This document shows, one piece after another, positions 34,795 through 52,200 of a stretch of 64,000 nucleotides of DNA (its first letter is position 1; every line of letters starts with the position of its first letter). The DNA lies in IMG/VR virus record IMGVR_UViG_3300020193_000004, positions 51,145 through 115,144 of that record; one strand, written 5' to 3'. Made by a program: the position numbers and the translations under genes. This DNA comes from a virus. Under the pieces are notes generated by a model that had not been told where the DNA came from, made no database searches, and was given only the letters and a program-made list of their open reading frames with translations.

Positions 34795-37584
34795 TCAGAG
34801 TTTGTAGGTCTTGAGCCCCTTGAGCCCGGTGATGACCTCCTCGAGGGACGTCATCGCGCGGACCGCGGCGGTCTTGGGGATGGACTGCAGGCCGAGCTGG
34901 GTAGCGAAGACCAAGCTGGCGAGCTTGCTCTGGGTCTCCTCGAGCTCGGGGATCGCGTTGACGAAGTCCTGTACGTTCTCGGCGTTGATGAAGCCGAGGG
35001 AGAGCAGGGTGTCGAGCGAGTCGACGCCGGCCAGGGCCTTCGCCTCCTTGTACAGCTCGATGGCCATGGCCTCCTTGAGGAGGCACACCGGCTTGGGCAC
35101 CGGCCCCCTGGTAGTGGCGATGTCCGCCACCGCGTCGGCGAAGGCCTCCTTCACGATGGCCGGGTCGGGCGACAGGGTGCGCAGGCCGTAGATACGTACA
35201 GGCTCCCCGGTCATGGCCGCCTTCTCCATCAGGGCGACGGAGAGGTTCTGGGGCACACCCGCGGCCGCGAGGTAGAAGATCGCGTCCGGCACGCCGTAGT
35301 CGCCCGAGCCGACCTTCTCGAAGACGGGGCCGGTGAGCTTCGCGCCCTGGAGCCCGCCGTAGCCGTCGGTCCAGGCGCGGATGACCGCGGAGCTGGAGAA
35401 GGAAGCAATCTTGGCGGGCATCATCGGATCGGCGCCTGCGCCCATCAGCTCGACCTGCCCGTTCAGGGGCATCCAGACGTAGTCGGCCGGCATCGCGATC
35501 TCGGTGGGGCTGGTCGCGATCGGGCGGCGGATGCCGTCGCTCGGGGTGATCTGGACCTCCATCCCCTCCATCGTCTGCGCGGCGTAGTAGCGCACGCCCT
35601 CGACGCTCACCGCGGTCATCACCGTGAACGGGATGGTGGCGATGATGCCCTTGCCGTCGGTCTTGTAGAAGACGCCGAGGCCGCGGGGTTCGGACTGCCC
35701 GCCAGGCAGGTTGTAGCTGACGCCCACCAGCACGCCGGCGATGTCCGGCTGCAGGGCGAAGGCGCTGCCGTTGGTGAAGAGCTTGGTCGGCGTCGTCTGC
35801 CCGGTGCGCGGGTCGAAGAGCGTCGGGATGACGTAGCCGACGAGCTCGTTGCCGGTGCTGGCCTCGTGGACCTTGTAGGTACCGAAGCCCTCGACGGGCT
35901 GCACCTGCTCCTCGAGGGGGTCGGGCTCCGCCTCGACACCGGTCATCGTGGCCACGCCCTGCTGGTCGGCGGTCTGGAGGGCCTCGGGCGGGAGGGTCTG
36001 CTGGGCCTGCGCCTGCGACATCTCCTGCTGCTGGGGCTGCACGCCATCCGGCGCCGCGGCCCACTTCACCAGGTAGCCGAACTCGGTGGGGCGCACCTGC
36101 ACGACGTCGAACCGGCCACGCGACGCGAGCTTCGTCGCGCCCTGGACGGTCATGCGGGTGCCTACGCCCTTCGAGGCGATCTTGTTCAGCGCGGCCATGG
36201 TCGAGGGGCAGATGGGCAGGAGGTCAGCGACCGCCGCGTCCTTGTACATCTCCTCGAAGACGGCGAAGTCGCTCGCGCGGACGGTGCCGGCGATCTTGGT
36301 CGAGAGGTTCACGGAGCTCTCCTTGACGATGAAGTCTCGAATGTGGCCGGCTGCACGACGGAACGGAGACAGTACGCGGTCACGTGCAGCACCGACCTCC
36401 GACTTCGCCGCGCTCATACCACCTGCGACCGCGGCATGTCCTGCCTCCTGCGCCAAGGGAGTCACGTGAGGTGCCACTGCGGCAACCGCGGCGTCTGCCA
36501 TGTTCTTCCCGACTTCTCGGGAGAGGGGGGCGATGTGCGGGGCCAGCGCCTTAACCGTGGCGTTGGCGTACTCGTCTCCGACCATCCTGGCGCGGGTCTT
36601 GATGAAGTCGTCCAGGTGCCCGAGAGCGGCAGGTGCGTAGTGGGCTGCTGCGCCGGCGCCGAGACCAAGCACGCCACCCTTCGCGGCACCGACGAGTGCA
36701 CGGTGACGCGCGAGCTGGTTGCCGAGTTCCTTGCTGCGATCGGCGTCCTCCTTCTTCATGAGGCCGCGCTGGACAAGGTCGTCCATCCCCATGCGCCCGA
36801 CGTGCTGGCGCTCACGCTCCTTGAGGTACGCCCCGATGCCCCCGAGCGTGGAGCCCCCGAGACTGGTGAGCGCGATGGTGCCGGCGGAGGCCTCCTTCTG
36901 CCGCTCCGAGTACGCATGGGGCATGTGGCCGATCACGGACTTGTGGTGCCAGTCCGGACCGTGCTGCTGCTCCAACGCACGCTGAAGAGGGCCCCAGGAC
37001 CCAACGCTGTCTCCGCCGCAGTAGGCTGCGCGCATCGCGGCTTGTCCGTGCATCCAGTTCATGTAGTGCCTGTCCAGCTCGGCGCTGTGCTGCTGCAGAA
37101 ACGCCTTCTCTTCGGCCGAGCCTTCCGCGTGCCGCATCAACTGCTGCTGCAACGGGTTGTACTTCTTCTCCTTCACTTCCCACACGGGGTGCAGATCCTT
37201 GGCGAACTGCTTGGCGTCGACCATGAACCGGTGCGGACGGATGTTGCGGACGTAGGGGCGTACCTGATCTTCCGGAATGCCCGAGGCGGCTGAGACCTGG
37301 GCCACGTAGGCGGAGGGGGCCTCGCTCTCCATGAGCTTCCTGGTAAGAAAGCTACCGATCCCGGCGTGCTTGTCCACCTCCGCAGAGGCCTCCTTCCCGA
37401 TGTCTGGGAAGCGGGCGTGGACGGCGTCCTGGACCTGCTTCTTCTCCGCGGGTGTGCCGTGTTGCGCGACGCGGGCGAGCGCGTTGCGGGCATGAGCAAG
37501 ATCGTGCACGGGGTACTTCCTCTTCTCGGGGAGGGCGAACGCCCCATCTGAGAGGCTATTCCGCTGTTGCGTTGTCAGATCCAT
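34795..37584 (-). CDS. Large modular head protein: DUF6582-like N-terminus, KxA-bounded inserts, core-like C-terminal part
   Basis: LSDGAFALPEKRKYPVHDLAHARNALARV; KEAS, KHAG, KEAS, KIAG, KDAA, KIAS, KLAS, KTAA. Confidence 0.75.
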   Translation of the reverse strand: MDLTTQQRNSLSDGAFALPEKRKYPVHDLAHARNALARVAQHGTPAEKKQVQDAVHARFPDIGKEASAEVDKHAGIGSFLTRKLMESEAPSAYVAQVSAASGIPEDQVRPYVRNIRPHRFMVDAKQFAKDLHPVWEVKEKKYNPLQQQLMRHAEGSAEEKAFLQQHSAELDRHYMNWMHGQAAMRAAYCGGDSVGSWGPLQRALEQQHGPDWHHKSVIGHMPHAYSERQKEASAGTIALTSLGGSTLGGIGAYLKERERQHVGRMGMDDLVQRGLMKKEDADRSKELGNQLARHRALVGAAKGGVLGLGAGAAAHYAPAALGHLDDFIKTRARMVGDEYANATVKALAPHIAPLSREVGKNMADAAVAAVAPHVTPLAQEAGHAAVAGGMSAAKSEVGAARDRVLSPFRRAAGHIRDFIVKESSVNLSTKIAGTVRASDFAVFEEMYKDAAVADLLPICPSTMAALNKIASKGVGTRMTVQGATKLASRGRFDVVQVRPTEFGYLVKWAAAPDGVQPQQQEMSQAQAQQTLPPEALQTADQQGVATMTGVEAEPDPLEEQVQPVEGFGTYKVHEASTGNELVGYVIPTLFDPRTGQTTPTKLFTNGSAFALQPDIAGVLVGVSYNLPGGQSEPRGLGVFYKTDGKGIIATIPFTVMTAVSVEGVRYYAAQTMEGMEVQITPSDGIRRPIATSPTEIAMPADYVWMPLNGQVELMGAGADPMMPAKIASFSSSAVIRAWTDGYGGLQGAKLTGPVFEKVGSGDYGVPDAIFYLAAAGVPQNLSVALMEKAAMTGEPVRIYGLRTLSPDPAIVKEAFADAVADIATTRGPVPKPVCLLKEAMAIELYKEAKALAGVDSLDTLLSLGFINAENVQDFVNAIPELEETQSKLASLVFATQLGLQSIPKTAAVRAMTSLEEVITGLKGLKTYKL

Positions 37585-38026
37585 GGGACGTCTCCAGATA
37601 CGCGATCATCTTCCTCAGCAGCACGGGGCTGTCTCGGATCGACCCGAGCACCCGATTACACCGATTGCACAGCCACCCACGAAACGTCCCGCTTGCGTGG
37701 CAGTGGTCGAACACGACCTTACCGGACTCTCCGCACAGCTCACAAGCGGCTGGACGCGGGCGCCCGGCAAGAGCCACACGCGCCGCTTCCTGCCGGGCTT
37801 TGAACTGCTGTTGCCGGCGTTGTGCTCCCTCAGGGTCGGCCGAGCGGCGGCGACGCTGCGCCTCCCGATCGAGATCTCGAACTCGTTCCTGGTTCTGCTC
37901 CCGGTGTCGATCGCGAGCAGCCCTGACTTTGTCCGGGTGGCGCTCTCGGTACCTACGCGCTTGCTCTGCGACCTTGTCGGGATTCTGCTTCCGCCATGCC
38001 TTGACCACTGCGTAGTCGCCAGACAT
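37556..38026 (-). CDS. Endonuclease VII-type (His-Me finger) putative homing endonuclease
   Basis: CELCG...VFDHCHASGTFRGWLCNRCNRVLG...D; Arg-rich helical N-terminus. Confidence 0.9.
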   Translation of the reverse strand: MSGDYAVVKAWRKQNPDKVAEQARRYRERHPDKVRAARDRHREQNQERVRDLDREAQRRRRSADPEGAQRRQQQFKARQEAARVALAGRPRPAACELCGESGKVVFDHCHASGTFRGWLCNRCNRVLGSIRDSPVLLRKMIAYLETSHGSDNATAE

Positions 38027-38030
38027 CGAC

Positions 38031-38053
38031 CACCTCCATAAGTCATGGAGATG
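38031..38053 (-). promoter_or_regulatory. Hairpin covering the endonuclease Shine-Dalgarno
   Basis: Minus strand CATCTCCATG-ACT-TATGGAGGTG: 10-bp stem with two G-U pairs, includes GGAGG just upstream of ATG 38026. Confidence 0.6.
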
Positions 38054-38067
38054 ATAACCCTCGGCTC

Positions 38068-38154
38068 CGCGTCATGGATGGGGTAGCGCCGCCCAGGAAG
38101 CGCGAAGGCACCCTCACCGAGGTTGTTGCGCTGGTCCGTGGTGAGCTCGGACAT
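38068..38154 (-). pseudogene. Relic original 5' end of the DUF6582-like gene
   Basis: MSELTTDQRNNLGEGAFALPGRRYPIHD versus MDLTTQQRNSLSDGAFALPEKRKYPVHD; its ATG overlaps the upstream TGA. Confidence 0.8.
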
Positions 38155-41100
38155 CAGCGACCTCCCAGGGTCGGCTGCGGCGCGGGCTCGGGGTTGCGCT
38201 TCTTGAGGAAGTGACGGATGCCAAGAGCCCCGGCAGCCCCAGCAGCCGCGACCCCAGCCCCGAGCACGGCATTGCGCCTGGTCAGGTGCCTGGCGAACCC
38301 ACCTGCAGCAGGCGCCGCCGCGTGCGCGGCCTCCGCAACAACCGGGGCCGCGTGCGACGCCGCCGCTGCCGGCACAGGCGTGTGAACGGGCGCAGGCGTG
38401 TGCACGGGTGCTGCAGGCGGTGGTACCGGCTTCGGAGGTGCTGCTGCAGGCGCAGACGGTGCTGCAGGTGCAACGTCGGAGATCTGCGGGGTCGCAGCCG
38501 GCTGCCGACTGTGGACACGGTCCTGGAGCTTCTGGTATCGATCGGCCACGCGGTTCAGACGCTGCGCCTTGTCAGCATCGCCTGCGGCAGCAGCGGCGGC
38601 GGCGTGTGCACGTAGCTCCTTCGCGCTACCTGTTAGCTCCCTCGCGGAAATGACCGTCTTGCCCCTCCGGACTTGCGCGGCACCCGCATCCGCGGCCTGC
38701 TGCACCGCTGGTGCGTGAGAGATCTGCGGGGTCGCAGCGGCTGGCGTCGGTGCAGCCGGTCGAGGTGCCGTGGGCTCCGCGGTCCAATGTCCGTCATAGG
38801 CAGCCGCGATGTCCTGACCCGTGTTGATGTGCGCCGGAGAAGGGTTCTTCTTTACATGCTCCCCCCACTCGTTCACAGCTCGAGAGACCTGTGCACGCCG
38901 AGCCTCCTGCGCAGCGTTGTGCTGTGCCGCCGCCTGCGCCTCCTGCGCTGCTTGTGCCTGCTGCGCACGCGCCAGCTGCGCCGGGGCCAGCCTCTGCGAG
39001 TTCTCTACGGCAACCGCAGGCGCCTGGGCCGCACGACGGGCCGCTTCCCGTGCCTGCAGCTCTGCTCCGGTGAGCGCCTCCTTCACGAAGAAGGCACGGA
39101 TGCTCGCCATCTTGGATGCTTCGGACATGGGCGCCCCACAGCTCGAGCAGTGACCGGTGTTCCCGACAGTACCCGTACCGCAGTACGCGCACTTGTACTT
39201 CTGCGGGGCGGCCGGGGACGACGACGACGACGAGCGGTCGCCGTAGTGGTGGTGCTCCGTCCGTGCAGGACGAAGCGCGTTGGAGATGACCGCGGCCTGG
39301 AGAGCATGCCGGTGGCGCCGCTCCTCGCCAGCGACGCCCTCGATCGCATGCCGGATCGCCTGGTGTGCCTCGTCCCTCTCCGCCGCCGGTCCTGCGGTGT
39401 TGACTCGCTTCCACTTTGCGATGGCCGCGTCATCGGATGCCTTCATGCCCCCGCCGATGAGCGCGCCGCCGAGACCGCCCACCACAGCCCCCAGCGCGGC
39501 CCCGCGGAGCCCGTGCCCGCGCCCGCCGTGCATTCCTGCGAGAGCTCCCGTGAGGAGGCCGAGTCCACCGCCGACACCCCCGCCGGTCGTCAGCGCGGTA
39601 CCGAGATCAGTCTGCTTTTCCTTCGCCTTCTTCCTGCCGTAGTCGATGACCGCCTTCTCCCGATCACCTTGGCTGACTGCGGCAGAGGCGAGGTAGTCAC
39701 GTCCGGGGTGGCTGGCTCCGAAGACCGCGGCGCCCTTCTCGCCAGCGGGCATCGCCGGTGACATCGGCATGGGCTGCGCTGCCGGGACCGTCTGTGGGTC
39801 CGGAGCGGTCGGTGCGGGCTGCATCGCATCGGCGATCTGGGGAACTGGTTGTTCCTGCGTGGCGGCAGGCGGGGCCGCCGCGGACGGATCGCGCTGCTTG
39901 AGTAGGTACTGGTTCGTCTCGTGCGTGCTCGCGATGCCCATCAGCAGGTCGTCGATCCCAAGGGAGAGCCCGCCGCCCTGGTCGAGGGAGCTGTAGGCCT
40001 CGAACAGGGTTGCCTGGAGCTCTCCCTCAGCGATGAGCGCCGCCTCGAAGATGCTGCCCGCGCCCTGCATCCACTGCTGGGAGCGGGCGGAGGCCTCGGC
40101 GAAGATCGTGCCGGGGTCCAGGCTCTGGTTGCCACCGTGCCCGACGATGCGCTCCGCCACGCTGTCGAACTCCTCCCGCACACCCTCGTACAGGCGCGTG
40201 AAGAGCTGGTGGTCTGAGTACGACGCCTCGCCCTGGCTGGTCCAGTGGGCGAAGTAGTAGAGCTGGTGGAGCGCGAAGAGCGTCGAGAGTACGGGGGCCA
40301 GTGAGGATGCGACGGCGTCCGGCACGGGGGTCGGGGTGTGCTCGGCGGCCTTCTCCGGCCCAGCTTCTCGAAGACGCTCCTCGATCCGCCCCAGTCGAGA
40401 CTTCAAGCCTGACCTGAACCCATAGTGTCCCGCGGCCGCACCCAGTGCCATCGAGCCGAGAGCGATCGGAAGGTCTGCCGCGCCAAGACGCGGACCGAAG
40501 TGAGAGGCGATGCCCATCCCCAAGGCGCCTCCCGCAGCCCCCGGAAGCGTCGCCGTGCGGCTCGCGAGCTGCTGCTCGACACGCTCCTTCTCGGCCAGCA
40601 GCTCCTCGCGCGTCATGGAGCCTACGAGTCTCGGCGTACCTACAAGTGCCGGCCCCCCGACCTTGGTGGCGGCACCAGCCAGCGGGATGGGCGCCGCGCT
40701 GATCTTGTTGAGGCCCATCGCCGGCTCGGTGACGCGGCCGAAGCCGTTGCGCTGCTGGTAGGGCGGGTAGAGCGAGTCCAGCAGCCCGGGCGAGCTCGGC
40801 ATGCTGGTGGCGTCGGTGTCGAAGATCGCCGGGTTCAGCATGGCCTGCTGGATGCGCTCCTCGGTCAGCGGGTAGACCTGGCCGCCCGCCTCGAAGATGT
40901 AGAACTTCTGAAGGCGGCGGTTCTCCACGACGATGGGGATGCGGAGGACGTTGCCCGCGTTCGGGAGGTTGTCCTGGGGGCGCGACATCGTGCGGTTCTG
41001 GACCTGCGCGTAGCCCAGCGCGCCGCCGGCCTCGGGGTCCATCCGGTCGAGGACGATCTCGATGTCGTACCGCGTGAGGAAGGGGTTCTCCTTCTGCAGC

Positions 41101-41222
41101 TCGGAGAAGATGTGCGCGGGCCACTTCTTCTCGTCGTCCGGCATACGCGAGATCGCCGACGCGACCTTCGTGGCGAAGAGGTCGTCGGAGGTCTTGAGCT
41201 GGATCAGAAGGGGTTCATGCAT
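38154..41222 (-). CDS. Large modular head protein with Dps/ferritin-like domain, Gly zippers and Zn-ribbon
   Basis: AHWTSQGEASYSDHQLFTRLYE...DSVAERI; CAYC...CSSC; KVAS, KISA, KAAE, KGAA, KMAS, KEAL. Confidence 0.75.
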   Translation of the reverse strand: MHEPLLIQLKTSDDLFATKVASAISRMPDDEKKWPAHIFSELQKENPFLTRYDIEIVLDRMDPEAGGALGYAQVQNRTMSRPQDNLPNAGNVLRIPIVVENRRLQKFYIFEAGGQVYPLTEERIQQAMLNPAIFDTDATSMPSSPGLLDSLYPPYQQRNGFGRVTEPAMGLNKISAAPIPLAGAATKVGGPALVGTPRLVGSMTREELLAEKERVEQQLASRTATLPGAAGGALGMGIASHFGPRLGAADLPIALGSMALGAAAGHYGFRSGLKSRLGRIEERLREAGPEKAAEHTPTPVPDAVASSLAPVLSTLFALHQLYYFAHWTSQGEASYSDHQLFTRLYEGVREEFDSVAERIVGHGGNQSLDPGTIFAEASARSQQWMQGAGSIFEAALIAEGELQATLFEAYSSLDQGGGLSLGIDDLLMGIASTHETNQYLLKQRDPSAAAPPAATQEQPVPQIADAMQPAPTAPDPQTVPAAQPMPMSPAMPAGEKGAAVFGASHPGRDYLASAAVSQGDREKAVIDYGRKKAKEKQTDLGTALTTGGGVGGGLGLLTGALAGMHGGRGHGLRGAALGAVVGGLGGALIGGGMKASDDAAIAKWKRVNTAGPAAERDEAHQAIRHAIEGVAGEERRHRHALQAAVISNALRPARTEHHHYGDRSSSSSSPAAPQKYKCAYCGTGTVGNTGHCSSCGAPMSEASKMASIRAFFVKEALTGAELQAREAARRAAQAPAVAVENSQRLAPAQLARAQQAQAAQEAQAAAQHNAAQEARRAQVSRAVNEWGEHVKKNPSPAHINTGQDIAAAYDGHWTAEPTAPRPAAPTPAAATPQISHAPAVQQAADAGAAQVRRGKTVISARELTGSAKELRAHAAAAAAAGDADKAQRLNRVADRYQKLQDRVHSRQPAATPQISDVAPAAPSAPAAAPPKPVPPPAAPVHTPAPVHTPVPAAAASHAAPVVAEAAHAAAPAAGGFARHLTRRNAVLGAGVAAAGAAGALGIRHFLKKRNPEPAPQPTLGGR

Positions 41223-49278: not shown

Positions 49279-52200
49279 GACGTATCGTCGCCACGCTTCT
49301 CGGTGTTCACCCCCATGGCGCGTAGGTAGTGCTGGAAGTTGGTCATCCCACGCGAGGGCTGCGGCGGCGGGAGCGGACTCCCGGAGATCACGGCGGCCCA
49401 GGCGGCGTGCTGGTCCCCGTCGCTCTTGAAGGTGTAGGCCTCCCGGAGGTTCTGGTTCGCACCGTGCGCGAGCATCGCGTACGTCGTGAGCATGTCCATC
49501 TTCTGCCCGCCGCCAGGGACGCCGGAGCCCTTCGGGGCCTCCCCGGAGTGCGTGTAGCCGGTCGCGAAGGACCGACCGGTCATCTTCTTCTCGACCTGGT
49601 GATGCAGCTGCATCATGTACTGCTTGCCGACCATCACCTGCCCGACCGAGCGTCCGGTCTCCGGGTCGATGAGCTCTTCCGTATCGGAGAGCCCGTACCG
49701 TGCCAGATCCCGCTTGACCTGCGCGGCGTAGTCGACGCCGGGCACGAAGTTCTCCACGACGTAGGGCTTGCCGGTCTTGTCCGCGATCTTCGACGCGGCC
49801 GTCTCGAGCACCTGCCCCACGTTCATACGGCTGGGCACGCCCGCGGGGTTCAGGAGGACCTCGACGTGCTGCCCGTCCTTCGTGTGGGGCATCTGGGAGT
49901 CGGGGACGATGCGGCTGATGATGCCCTTGTTGCCGTGCCGCCCCGCCATCTTGTCACCGATCTCGAGCGGCTTGGACGTCTTCACGTGGACCGCGATCTG
50001 GCGCCGGTTCAGAGTCTCGTTGACGATGATCTTGACTACGGTCCCGGAGTACGGGTGGTCCCACAGGAGCGACACGTCCTTGTAGGGCTTCGCGAGGGAC
50101 TTGTGGATGCGCGCAGCGATCTTGTCGTCCTCGCTCATCTGCTTCGGGCTGAGGACGGCCACGAGGATGTCGCCGGTGTGTACAGGCGTCCCCTCCTTCA
50201 CGATCCCGCGGTCGTCGAGCTTGGCCAGGTGCTCCGGCGAAGCCGCGGCAGGGGTCGCGTAGTCCGCCCAGCGCGCCTTCGACCCGCCGGTGCCGCCGAG
50301 CATGCTCGCGTAGACCGTGATCTCCGAGACGTGCAGGTGGTCCGACGCCATCTTCTGCGCGGCGGACTCGGACACGACGATCCCGTCCTCGAAGGTCAGA
50401 CCCTTCCACGGGATGTAGGCCACCCGCAGATTGGCCCCCATCGCGAGCGCGCCGCCCTTCGTGTAGTTCGTGTCCGCGAGCAGCGTGCCCTTCTGTACGG
50501 TGTCGCCCGCCTTCACGAGCGGTGCAGCGTGGAGCGAGTTCTTCCCCCCGTTCAGCGGGAAGTGGTTGTAGACCGGGACCGCCACGGAGCCCGTGGGCGT
50601 CTGGACATGGATGGCGCCCGGCTCCACCTTCCTGACCACGCCGGCCACGGGCGACGTGTGCGAGACGAAGGAGCCCACAACCTGCTCGAAGGTCTGGGCG
50701 CCGTCCGTCTTCACCTGCACGAGCGGAGCTTCCCGGTGCACCAGTGCGAGCGCCTGCTCCTGCTGCTTGGCAGCCATCATGGCGCGGTTGCCGTTGTCGT
50801 TCTGGAGGAACGGGATGAGGTTCGCACTGAAGGAGAGCAGGGCCTTCGACGACGGGAGCACGTACCGGACCTTCGCCCAGGGACGCTTCGACGTGCGACG
50901 CTCCTCGTCGTAGCAGACGACCTCGTTCGACACCGGCTCGGGCATGCCCCGCACCCAGCGCACCTGGTCCGGGTAGGCCACGATGGCGTGCTCGAGGTCC
51001 GCCGGCGAGGCCAAGATCATCTTCCCCGTCTTCGTGTCGAAGACCTTTGTGCGTAGGTCCTGGCCGGAAGACGTCTTGCTCTTCGAGCCCTCGCGCACGT
51101 CGGCACGCGACATGTGGATCCCCAGGGGCAGGTTCAGCGCGATCCCGGTGTCCTCTCCCTCTGGGGTCTGGATCGGATCGATGAACCCAAGGTGCGTGGG
51201 GTTCAGTTCCTTGTCGGGGTCGAGGTTGATCTTGTCACTGCCGACGCCGCCAAAGTCCTTGCCGCGGATCGTCGTCCGCATGTGCCCCGAGAGGAACTGG
51301 AGCGGGTTGGTCTGGTCGGGCCGCTGCGCGTGGGCGAACGGTGCCAGGACGACCTTGTTGTAGGTGTTCGGCGACATGATCTGGTCGATGCCGTACTCGG
51401 GCTTGTCGATCCGGTCGCGCACCTGGCGCCGCAGCAGCGTCTCGTGATGGCGGATGGCCTCCACGACGAAGTCCTCGGTCGTGGTCAGGTACTTGGCCGA
51501 CAGCGCCTGTCGATCATCGGGGAGCTCGGACGGCGGCGGGTCTTCCTTCGTGCGTCCCTTCTGGATGTCCAGGAGCCGGCGCGAGGATGCGAGGAGGTTC
51601 TCGCCGTTGACGTTGGAGGACTCCCTGCCGAACGCCGACTTCATCGCGTCTGGCCAGACCTCGGTCTCCCTGTCGAAGTACTCGCGGACGCGCTGGGCAC
51701 GCGCCTGCGGCGTCCCGTGCGACCGGTCCTCGAGGCGCAGCCCGAGCGCTGCGAAGAGCTTGTCCACGTCCTTGTCGAGGTGGACCGCCTTCGTGTTGGC
51801 GGCGTAGACGGCGTTCCCCCAGGCGTGCTCGATCTCCGCATCCGTGACACCGAGTGTGCGAAGCACGGAGTAGAGCGGCAGGTTCGAGGTCCCCACCGAG
51901 AATGTCATCTTGCCGGCCTTGGGTTCGTAGCCGATGTCGAACCCGCGGCCGCGCGCCAGGTTCCAGCGCCCCTGGAGGTCGCCGTTGCCCGCAATGCGGT
52001 GGTAGGGGCGGGGCTTCGAGCGGAAGACGCTGTCGTGCTGTCGCTCCTGCCCCTCGATGATGTAGGAGTACCGGCGCGTCATCTTCGGGAGGCGTGCGAG
52101 CGTGACGAGCTTCTCCTCCACGAGGGCACCGCTCGTCTTGTCAACGAGACGCAGTCGTGCCCGGACCGGCACGCCCCAGGTCATACCGGTCGTCCGCGCG

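Follow-up and report, generated by a model that had tools for sequence, protein, structure and literature searches.

A candidate Endonuclease VII-type homing cassette that may have replaced the 5' end of a late gene in an uncultured lake phage

In an uncultured large lake phage, a conserved late gene encoding a 929-aa protein appears to have received a foreign start together with a candidate homing endonuclease gene, and its apparent own first 29 codons persist upstream as a disconnected stub. Homing endonuclease genes in coding sequence are thought to survive either within an intron or intein, or by dividing the host gene into parts that come together again. The window that we analysed comprises 64,000 nucleotides (positions 51,145 to 115,144 of IMG/VR record IMGVR_UViG_3300020193_000004); within it the layout of stub, endonuclease gene and restarted gene was confirmed, with all features on the minus strand. 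The most likely origin, and one that we regard as probable judging from sequence comparison, is a one-sided (illegitimate) homing event that copied in the endonuclease gene together with the 5' end of a donor gene. The features are given below in window coordinates.

38154..41222, minus strand: upstream gene of 1022 aa, with a conserved N-terminal portion of ~180 aa followed by variable cassettes that include a ferritin/Dps-like domain
38161..38166, minus strand: Shine-Dalgarno (SD) sequence of the stub, GGGAGG, 6 nt 5' of the stub ATG
38156-38154, minus strand: TGA stop of the 1022-aa gene, overlapping the stub ATG (TGATG; CGC TGA TG TCC)
38068..38154, minus strand: stub, the apparent native 5' end, comprising 29 codons of a DUF6582 N-terminus, MSELTTDQRNNLGEGAFALPGRRYPIHDA, of the subtype found in this phage group
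37615..38067, minus strand: out-of-frame continuation of the stub across the endonuclease gene, Arg/Ser-rich; the whole ORF has 179 aa
38027..38067, minus strand: spacer of 41 nt, GC 0.54, with a 12-bp hairpin (arms 38055-38044 and 38040-38029)
37556..38026, minus strand: free-standing Endonuclease VII-type gene, 156 aa, a candidate homing endonuclease with intact motif
37582..37595, minus strand: dual-coding junction, in which the endonuclease codons for L-E-T-S-H-G hold an SD sequence, GGAGAC (37595-37590), and an ATG (37584-37582)
37420..37584, minus strand: 5' end of the 929-aa gene (codons 1 to ~55), putatively imported and belonging to the small stand-alone subtype of DUF6582
34795..37419, minus strand: putatively resident remainder of the 929-aa gene: the last part of the DUF6582 module (group subtype, HARFPDIGKEA), then variable modules B and C, then the core

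The N-terminal domain of the upstream gene is conserved in L001, L034, L132 and other related loci. In relatives the native start of the downstream gene tightly abuts the upstream stop (ATGA in L001; also L132), and the stub occupies the same position. As originally predicted, the stub is coupled to the upstream stop and breaks off after about 29 codons: the ORF from 38154 to 37615 (minus strand) opens with the residues listed above, but the DUF6582 wording ends after HDA at codon 29, beyond which the reading frame is out of frame. The nuclease ORF comes next and is overlapped, again as predicted, by a diverged second start; the 929-aa ORF begins at 37584, 29 nt within the endonuclease ORF, with MDLTTQQRNSLSDGAFALPEKRKYPVHD. 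This gene, which includes a conserved core of ~505 aa with a GC3 of 0.93-1.0, has its own SD sequence in an initiation region that is unusually unstructured (z +2.6). The whole arrangement recurs, with one base difference, in a 16-kb contig assembled independently from a lake-water run, and misassembly by a repeat is not expected because the two copies are only 63% identical.

The expectation that no splicing is involved agrees with this independent second start and with an Rfam comparison of 36800-38800, which gave no intron match at E<=1. The reading frame of the stub differs from that of the endonuclease gene, and a stop in the endonuclease frame falls inside the stub; a group I or group II intron, or an intein-borne endonuclease, was rejected on the grounds of these frames, this stop and the missing ribozyme match. 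We also considered a -1 frameshift fusion of stub and endonuclease, with which the frames would be compatible, but there is no slippery heptamer and the endonuclease-frame stop within the stub is a TGA. Neither a sigma-70 promoter nor a terminator was detected within 37300-38500. The hairpin in the spacer pairs the GGAGG of the endonuclease gene (38037-38033) and has a predicted fold of -21 kcal/mol (z -2.2; 6 of 200 shuffles were as stable). In this respect it resembles the hairpins that sequester the ribosome binding site (RBS) before the endonuclease genes I-TevI, segB and mobE (PMC2988022). Such a hairpin is missing 5' of the endonuclease homologues in L004, L009 and L081, so that it is not a conserved feature of the cassette.

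The 156-aa protein matches Pfam Endonuclease_7 (PF02945) with an E value of 2.2e-17 (63.2 bits against a cut-off of 23.6), phrog_2633 (annotated 'endonuclease VII') at 3.8e-20 and the beta-beta-alpha-Me core of Hpy99I at 9e-8. The Endonuclease VII-motif signature consists of CX2-4C, D-H-x-H, a conserved R and CX2C-N (PMC6083498), and the corresponding zinc and catalytic residues are all intact (C95xxC98, D107-H108-x-H110, R116 and C120xxC123-N124). The catalytic domain occupies the C-terminal part of a small protein and follows a basic N-terminal extension, an order shared with the F-CphI homing clade, and here too the gene is free-standing, optional and adjacent to a conserved phage gene (PMC6083498); the sequence similarity, however, is at the family level only. 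Self-immunity also differs in kind: F-CphI owes it to an intron within its target (collaborative homing), and in the present phage a divergent replacement allele would confer it. The tail of the enzyme (YLETSHGS in this phage) is conserved as YLET-HGS-N in the nearest homologue, L004; because this tail bears the SD sequence and the ATG, the junction between endonuclease and new start would predate the insertion. The nearest homologues, in L004 and L009 and also in L081, lie 0-600 nt from DUF6582 genes. No donor was found in which the endonuclease directly overlaps a DUF6582 start, the neighbours in L004, L009 and L081 being otherwise arranged. When the surroundings of 31 homologous endonuclease genes were searched by tblastx for duplicated flanks, noise from high-GC, low-complexity sequence drowned any signal.

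In accordance with the claim that the element is mobile, the 156-aa ORF is the only PF02945 match in the 115-kb record (CheckV completeness estimate 66%), and the endonuclease is missing from the complete relatives G001 (99%) and G002 (100%). Neither an endonuclease nor a DUF6582 module is present at the counterpart of the 929-aa gene in ~35 related syntenic loci. This distribution supports the assignment of the endonuclease as an optional, sporadic gene of mobile type. It is highly unlikely that the ORF encodes an ordinary junction-resolving or packaging enzyme similar to T4 gp49, with the stub as an unrelated relic. The Pfam family is indeed named after the T4 resolvase, and the homologues in L081 and L004 adjoin terminase genes, but the gene is missing from two complete relatives, its domain order is that of the homing clade and not of the resolvase clade (PMC6083498), its codon adaptation is the lowest of the region, and it sits exactly between a gene fragment and the replacement for that fragment.

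Since the 5' extension of the invaded gene is a region of variable cassettes, most relatives lack a DUF6582 N-terminus there altogether. The original prediction called for uninterrupted alleles in related phages, and at the protein level there is a candidate: the related protein P0004 has an uninterrupted stub-type DUF6582 N-terminus joined to the same core. Among the contigs of four lake runs there was no joint that skips the cassette; the fragments in lake samples X5-X7 happen to miss 37593-38146, a result of patchy coverage which is no evidence for an empty allele.

Across residues 2-28 the stub shows 66.7% amino-acid identity to the present start (tblastn E 1.6e-7, database size ~0.5 Mb); in DNA the two are ~63% identical, with synonymous sites saturated. 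At the level of sequence, then, the duplicated N-terminus is real and not a chance resemblance, and its saturated synonymous sites indicate that the duplication is old. It is extremely unlikely that the first ~29 codons were duplicated in place at the time of the insertion and that the copies then diverged. Such a duplication would predict what is seen, two colinear copies with a common last codon, but divergence to 63% DNA identity with saturated synonymous sites would take very long; the unselected stub nevertheless still matches its own subfamily at 75%, compared with 81% for the selected part, the endonuclease ORF is intact, and the two copies belong to different DUF6582 subtypes.

The affinities of the two copies point to different sources. 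The stub is identical at 19-21 of 28 positions to P0004, P0005 (from L053), P0007 and P0006, and P0004 agrees with it at 21/29 positions as against 15-17/29 for the present start. When segments of the present module were compared with 134 DUF6582 modules, the three best matches to residues 56-66 (P0005, P0007 and P0060) were all among the six best matches to the stub, an overlap expected by chance at ~5e-5, although the segments span 11-30 residues, the references were picked after looking and the rankings contain ties. Over residues 1-30 of the present protein these same three references are average or below (13-17/29, where the maximum is 20 and the mean 16); the best matches to residues 1-30 and 45-55 are small stand-alone DUF6582 proteins, and P0077 matches the present 5' end at 20/29, a partial sign that this subtype occurs in unrelated genomes with an identity above that of the stub, contrary to a duplication in place. 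Family-wide rank correlations between segment identities are approximately zero, the nearest-neighbour sets alone being informative, and at the DNA level, where L053 was set against both the stub and the present start, identities are saturated (58-66%) and cannot discriminate. These affinities suggest that the present module is chimeric, with residues 1 to ~55 of the stand-alone type and residues 56-66 of the group type. The right-hand crossover is probably located between codon 30 and codon ~55, within or just past the invariant HARNALARVAQHGT stretch. GC3 is 0.68 in the endonuclease gene, the lowest value in the region, 0.70 in codons 1-30 and 0.87 thereafter, a step that on its own is not significant (21/30 versus 26/30). 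The suggestion that the 5' end had been replaced thus stands in so far as its nearest relatives differ from those of the stub and of residues 56-66, but the tract that appears to be imported probably extends to about codon 55 and not to codon 28; this end, described as a recoded copy, is better called a foreign allele of a different DUF6582 subtype.

An alternative that we consider unlikely is that the stub represents the remains of a separate small DUF6582 gene, one of two tandem paralogues, into which the endonuclease gene was inserted with deletion of the 3' half, so that the start of the 929-aa gene was never replaced. The family occurs most commonly as small proteins of 65-90 aa that stand alone (phrog_16160; >1300 small homologues; examples in L004, L009 and L081), and two modules can stand close together, as in L084. 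Moreover, all DUF6582 members begin with M-x-(E/K)-L-(T/S)-T..R..L, and N-terminal wording that is common to the whole family does not prove the two copies to be alleles. Tandem paralogy leaves unexplained, however, why residues 56-66 share the best relatives of the stub while residues 1-55 do not, and it requires a precise deletion that set the conserved tail of the endonuclease over the SD sequence and ATG of the next gene. In P0004 the group-type module is fused straight to the core, and no relative has a small DUF6582 gene at this locus, which goes against the two-paralogue arrangement that the original prediction had named as its refutation.

It is very unlikely that a donor supplied the stub, as a truncated gene, along with the endonuclease gene, and that the pair was placed before an intact resident gene. 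The structure A-X-A'-B is formally symmetric, and the proximity of the nearest endonuclease homologues to DUF6582 genes could be read in this way, but the stub is of the subtype typical of the group (P0004-P0007) and the start in use is not. It is also the stub that holds the native coupled start and a strong SD sequence, and of the two junctions that the endonuclease forms, the tightly adapted one is with the start in use, not with the stub.

One-sided homing, the reading that we prefer, would have proceeded as follows, where we infer the cleavage site, the donor and the order of events. The cassette, which would consist of the spacer with its RBS-hiding hairpin, the endonuclease gene and the foreign first ~30-55 DUF6582 codons, would have entered the 5' end of the conserved late gene. 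The enzyme may have cut a cassette-free allele near codon 29-30, just 5' of the near-invariant stretch, and homologous recombination may then have mended the downstream end from a donor whose endonuclease gene stood immediately 5' of a DUF6582 gene. The upstream end, where there is no homology, would have been joined illegitimately, and because of this the native 29 codons would have been left as a stub coupled to the upstream gene. The 929-aa gene would then restart from the SD sequence and ATG embedded in the 3' end of the endonuclease gene, making splicing unnecessary. The new 5' end is probably not a substrate for the enzyme because ~37% of its bases differ from those of the old one.

The nearest known arrangements are the mORF (mobile ORF) gene hybrids of fungal mitochondria, which have been described for atp6 in Allomyces macrogynus and for atp6, atp9, cox2 and nad3 in Glomus sp. 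(PMC3630166); duplications of the atp9 N-terminus also adjoin GIY-YIG genes in fungal mitochondria (PMC7487136). As in the mORF hybrids, the endonuclease gene in the phage is flanked by a duplicated gene end of which one copy is used and the other is a remnant, the copy that appears to have come with the endonuclease within a protein gene being the one in use and the apparent native end being kept next to it, with no splicing involved. The affinities described above suggest that the remnant groups with close relatives and that the used copy does not, as has been found for the hybrids. In contrast to the hybrids, in which a foreign C-terminus is acquired at the 3' end, the phage case concerns the 5' end and is thus a mirror image; it occurs in a bacteriophage and not in an organelle, the enzyme carries an Endonuclease VII motif as opposed to LAGLIDADG or GIY-YIG, and the endonuclease is unfused to the host gene, to which its 3' end supplies the SD sequence and the ATG. 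The phage cassette works like an mORF hybrid, yet lies outside the described set as a 5'-end replacement in a phage.

In T4, one-sided homing has been demonstrated in which the side that lacks homology is repaired illegitimately (Parker et al. 1999, reviewed in PMC2988022). Homology at one side only, with illegitimate joining at the other, would be shared with that system, and as in T4 free-standing homing the endonuclease gene lies between or within conserved genes and flanking donor sequence would be co-converted. Unlike the phage cassette, the natural T4-type cases either replace the recipient cleanly or split a gene into two functional polypeptides (nrdA, gene 43 and topoisomerase), and a dead 5' stub kept beside a restarted gene is not among the T4-type cases in that review (PMC2988022). 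We found no report of gene-start replacement by a homing cassette in phages; its mirror image is known from fungal mitochondria, where cassettes with a replacement gene end are documented for the 3' ends of genes (PMC3630166). A clear phage case at a 5' end, in which the endonuclease tail gives the RBS and start codon, would extend the replacement-end strategy to viruses and would show that one-sided illegitimate homing, made experimentally in T4, also happens in nature. Such a cassette also offers a mechanism for module swapping at the highly variable 5' extension of the late gene, and yields a testable enzyme-target pair from an uncharacterised branch of the Endonuclease VII homing family.

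A wider conjecture, which we advance tentatively and think somewhat unlikely, is that the specific target of this Endonuclease VII homing clade is the near-invariant coding core of DUF6582, a very abundant module, and that the clade moves between unrelated genes and phages as a self-sufficient unit of endonuclease, SD/ATG and replacement 5' end. If this were true, the unit could insert itself at the start of any gene with DUF6582 at its 5' end and not inactivate it, and would thereby cause cassettes to be shuffled at the hotspot that separates the two large late genes. It would then be a phage counterpart of the mitochondrial mORFs and a third means of neutralising an insertion into coding sequence, besides introns and inteins.

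AlphaFold modelled the conserved core of the invaded gene poorly (pLDDT 53), and this model was set aside for the fold search; the ESM Atlas gave no usable match. The region had no blastn match among 50,697 phage records; tblastn with the 929-aa protein matched DUF6582 pieces alone, in three Streptomyces jumbo phages, and the neighbourhood in Kela was uninformative.

The locus is also liable to mislead annotation. The stop codon of the stub ORF (37617-37615) lies 30 nt ahead of the second start, but the length of this 179-aa ORF is not significant because long ORFs in alternative frames are common in DNA of 65-70% GC. The coupled first start is best regarded as a relic, and the 179-aa ORF should not be annotated as a gene.

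The locus is laid out as in the original prediction, with a stub that breaks off after about 29 codons, an EndoVII ORF and a diverged second start, all on the minus strand:

41222-38154, minus strand: 1022-aa upstream gene, ending CGC TGA, the A of TGA being the first base of ATG 38154
38154, minus strand: ATG start codon of the stub, with GGGAGG 6 nt upstream
38154-38068, minus strand: stub of 29 codons, reading MSELTTDQRNNLGEGAFALPGRRYPIHDA
41 nt from stub to endonuclease ORF, minus strand: spacer, GC 0.54
38026-37556, minus strand: endonuclease ORF of 156 aa, matching Pfam Endonuclease_7 and phrog_2633
37584, minus strand: ATG of the 929-aa gene, 29 nt upstream of the end of the endonuclease ORF, beginning MDLTTQQRNSLSDGAFALPEKRKYPVHD

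After codon 29 the stub frame continues as Arg/Ser-rich text to a stop at 37617-37615, making a whole ORF of 179 aa. An independent 16-kb assembly from a lake-water run covers the entire arrangement with one difference, and misassembly caused by the two N-terminal copies is ruled out because they are only about 63% identical in DNA (67% in protein, with E 1.6e-7 against a small database). Both are the beginning of a DUF6582 (phrog_16160) module. Most members of this very abundant family are proteins of 65-90 aa that stand alone (over 1300 small homologues), and it is also found as a cassette within large phage proteins (loci L053 and L084). In L084 (3518-5194) two modules lie about 300 residues apart in a low-GC phage protein exceeding 559 aa, hence DUF6582 also multiplies inside single large proteins. 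The 929-aa gene comprises a conserved core of about 505 aa, whose codon bias is very high (GC3 0.93-1.0), and ahead of it a 420-aa N-terminal extension in which the bias is weaker.

Segment-by-segment comparison of 134 DUF6582 modules gave different nearest matches along the present module. The stub best matches P0004, P0005 (from L053), P0007, P0006 and P0060 (19-21/28), and the same modules best match present residues 56-66 (HARFPDIGKEA; P0005 and P0007 9/11, P0060 8/11, with P0004 and P0006 at 7/11, tied with three others). The chance that the three best of one list fall within the top six of the other is about 5e-5, a figure that derives from short segments, tied rankings and references picked after looking. 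For present residues 1-30 the nearest sequences are small proteins that stand alone, of the type MAKDLTTKQRKKLSKKxFALPGKRKYPIPDKA (up to 20/29); the group modules reach only 13-17/29 there, the overall mean being 16, and residues 45-55 are likewise closer to non-group sequences. Because the segment-wise nearest matches differ, the present module looks chimeric, with a putative crossover between codon 30 and approximately 55, inside the invariant HARNALARVAQHGT stretch or directly behind it, and the stub resembles the native partner that residues 56-66 have lost. GC3 (endonuclease 0.68, codons 1-30 0.70, 0.87 afterwards) agrees weakly with a chimera. Family-wide, correlations between segment identities were nil, and comparisons at the DNA level are saturated. 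The serious rival is that the two N-termini are tandem paralogues, one of them truncated, which we consider unlikely given these segment matches. Duplication in place followed by divergence of the copies is hardly credible.

An uninterrupted form of the module is provided by P0004 (825 aa), where it lies at the N-terminus, joined to the same core; of its first 29 residues, 21 match the stub and 15-17 the present start. It is very unlikely that the stub came in together with the endonuclease. The more distant L053 has the same module subtype in a separate gene between the two conserved genes. In all of approximately 35 related loci, drawn from viral and metagenome collections and retaining the upstream N-domain gene paired with the core gene, neither a DUF6582 module nor an endonuclease is present at the core gene. 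Two complete genomes of the group contain neither family anywhere. In the related loci the core gene begins directly at the upstream stop (e.g. ATGA in L001), and its extension is missing in L001, partial in L132 and unrelated in others. From this comparison, the endonuclease gene is optional, and cassettes have their hotspot at the 5' extension.

The endonuclease ORF scores 63 bits against Pfam Endonuclease_7 (cut-off 23.6) and contains the full motif (C95xxC98, D107-H108-x-H110, R116, C120xxC123-N124) in its C-terminal half, preceded by a basic N-terminal region. Proteins of the homing clade to which F-CphI gives its definition (PMC6083498) are built in this way, and T4 resolvase is not; that the 156-aa protein is an ordinary resolvase is highly improbable. 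Its nearest homologues, in L004 (51% identity) and L009, and also that in L081, are all encoded 0-600 nt from DUF6582 genes, in arrangements other than that of the window. This association is suggestive; it may be partly due to shared placement near head and packaging genes. In L004 (2625-3491) the closest homologue, 220 aa, ends 1 base before the stop of a convergent 67-aa DUF6582 gene, which over its first 30 residues ranks with the better matches to the present start (17/29). In L009 (1952-4062) a 344-aa capsid-like gene lies between two Endonuclease VII-type genes, the first frameshift-broken (ORFs 1952-2305 and 2155-2415) and the second intact (198 aa), with a 65-aa DUF6582 gene 550 nt beyond.

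The two junctions differ in kind. That between stub and endonuclease is a short AT-richer spacer, in which a 12-bp hairpin (-21 kcal/mol, z -2.2) pairs the GGAGG of the endonuclease gene, as known for I-TevI, segB and mobE (PMC2988022); such a hairpin was not seen upstream of the homologous genes in L004, L009 and L081. The other junction is dual-coding: the codons of the endonuclease tail Y-L-E-T-S-H-G-S hold the SD GGAG, and the ATG of the 929-aa gene is embedded in CAT GGA. The tail is kept in L004 (YLET-HGS-N), which suggests that the donor already had endonuclease and new start joined as a unit. Folding of the initiation region (37570-37625) is far weaker than in each of 200 shuffled versions (-6.1 kcal/mol, shuffle mean -13.1 kcal/mol, z +2.6), in keeping with selection to hold the start site open within the endonuclease 3' end.

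Replacement of the 5' end by a homing element, as first proposed, is largely supported by the optional nuclease, the mosaic module and P0004. The enzyme would cut near codon 29-30 of cassette-free alleles, the downstream end would invade the donor via the conserved module core, and the upstream end, lacking homology, would be joined illegitimately. Such one-sided homing was shown experimentally in T4 (Parker et al. 1999, as cited in PMC2988022). The product would read native stub, spacer, endonuclease gene, donor 5' end and resident gene. The proposal that the insertion is neutralised without splicing is borne out at sequence level: intron models found no match in the region and the endonuclease frame differs from that of the stub, so splicing is unnecessary for expression. 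Since the stub has kept its coupling to a strong start, translation probably yields a junk product of 179 aa from it, ending 30 nt before the real start; any benefit of this to re-initiation, or any damping of endonuclease translation, is speculative. With 37% of bases different, the new allele could plausibly be immune to the enzyme.

The closest precedent is the mORF gene hybrid of fungal mitochondria, in which an endonuclease gene brings along a C-terminal gene end of foreign origin, and the native one is left behind as a remnant, grouping with close relatives (PMC3630166); duplications of the atp9 N-terminus have also been reported (PMC7487136). The present case works alike, with a foreign gene end accompanying an endonuclease and a native remnant kept, but is its 5' mirror image, in a phage, with another nuclease family and an overlap that supplies the start. 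Described phage outcomes are clean co-conversion and genes split into two working polypeptides (PMC2988022), together with nucleases at recombination boundaries (PMC10448857); a dead 5' stub with a restarted gene is not described in the open-access phage literature searched.

The hotspot extends from the conserved N-domain of the upstream gene to the core (window 34795-41222), with counterparts at L053:1534-8118, L132:4032-8085 and L001:4286-7536. Two giant ORFs in the window incorporate a Dps/ferritin-like domain, the DUF6582 module and further pieces, which are separate genes in L053 and absent in L001, and GC3 falls from approximately 1.0 at the conserved ends to 0.5-0.9 within the cassettes. 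At 39216-39516, in-frame 3-bp insertions (GAC, GTG, GTA, CCG) in a low-complexity part of the 1022-aa gene differ between lake-sample contigs and represent population microheterogeneity of linker regions. Each of the four lake runs has a second contig that matches 37452-37548, up to about codon 13 of the present start, and past 37548 continues into unrelated sequence (AACGCGGTTAGCGATT). Another DUF6582-bearing element, whose DNA is near-identical for part of the imported 5' end, co-occurs in the lake and could be a donor-type relative.
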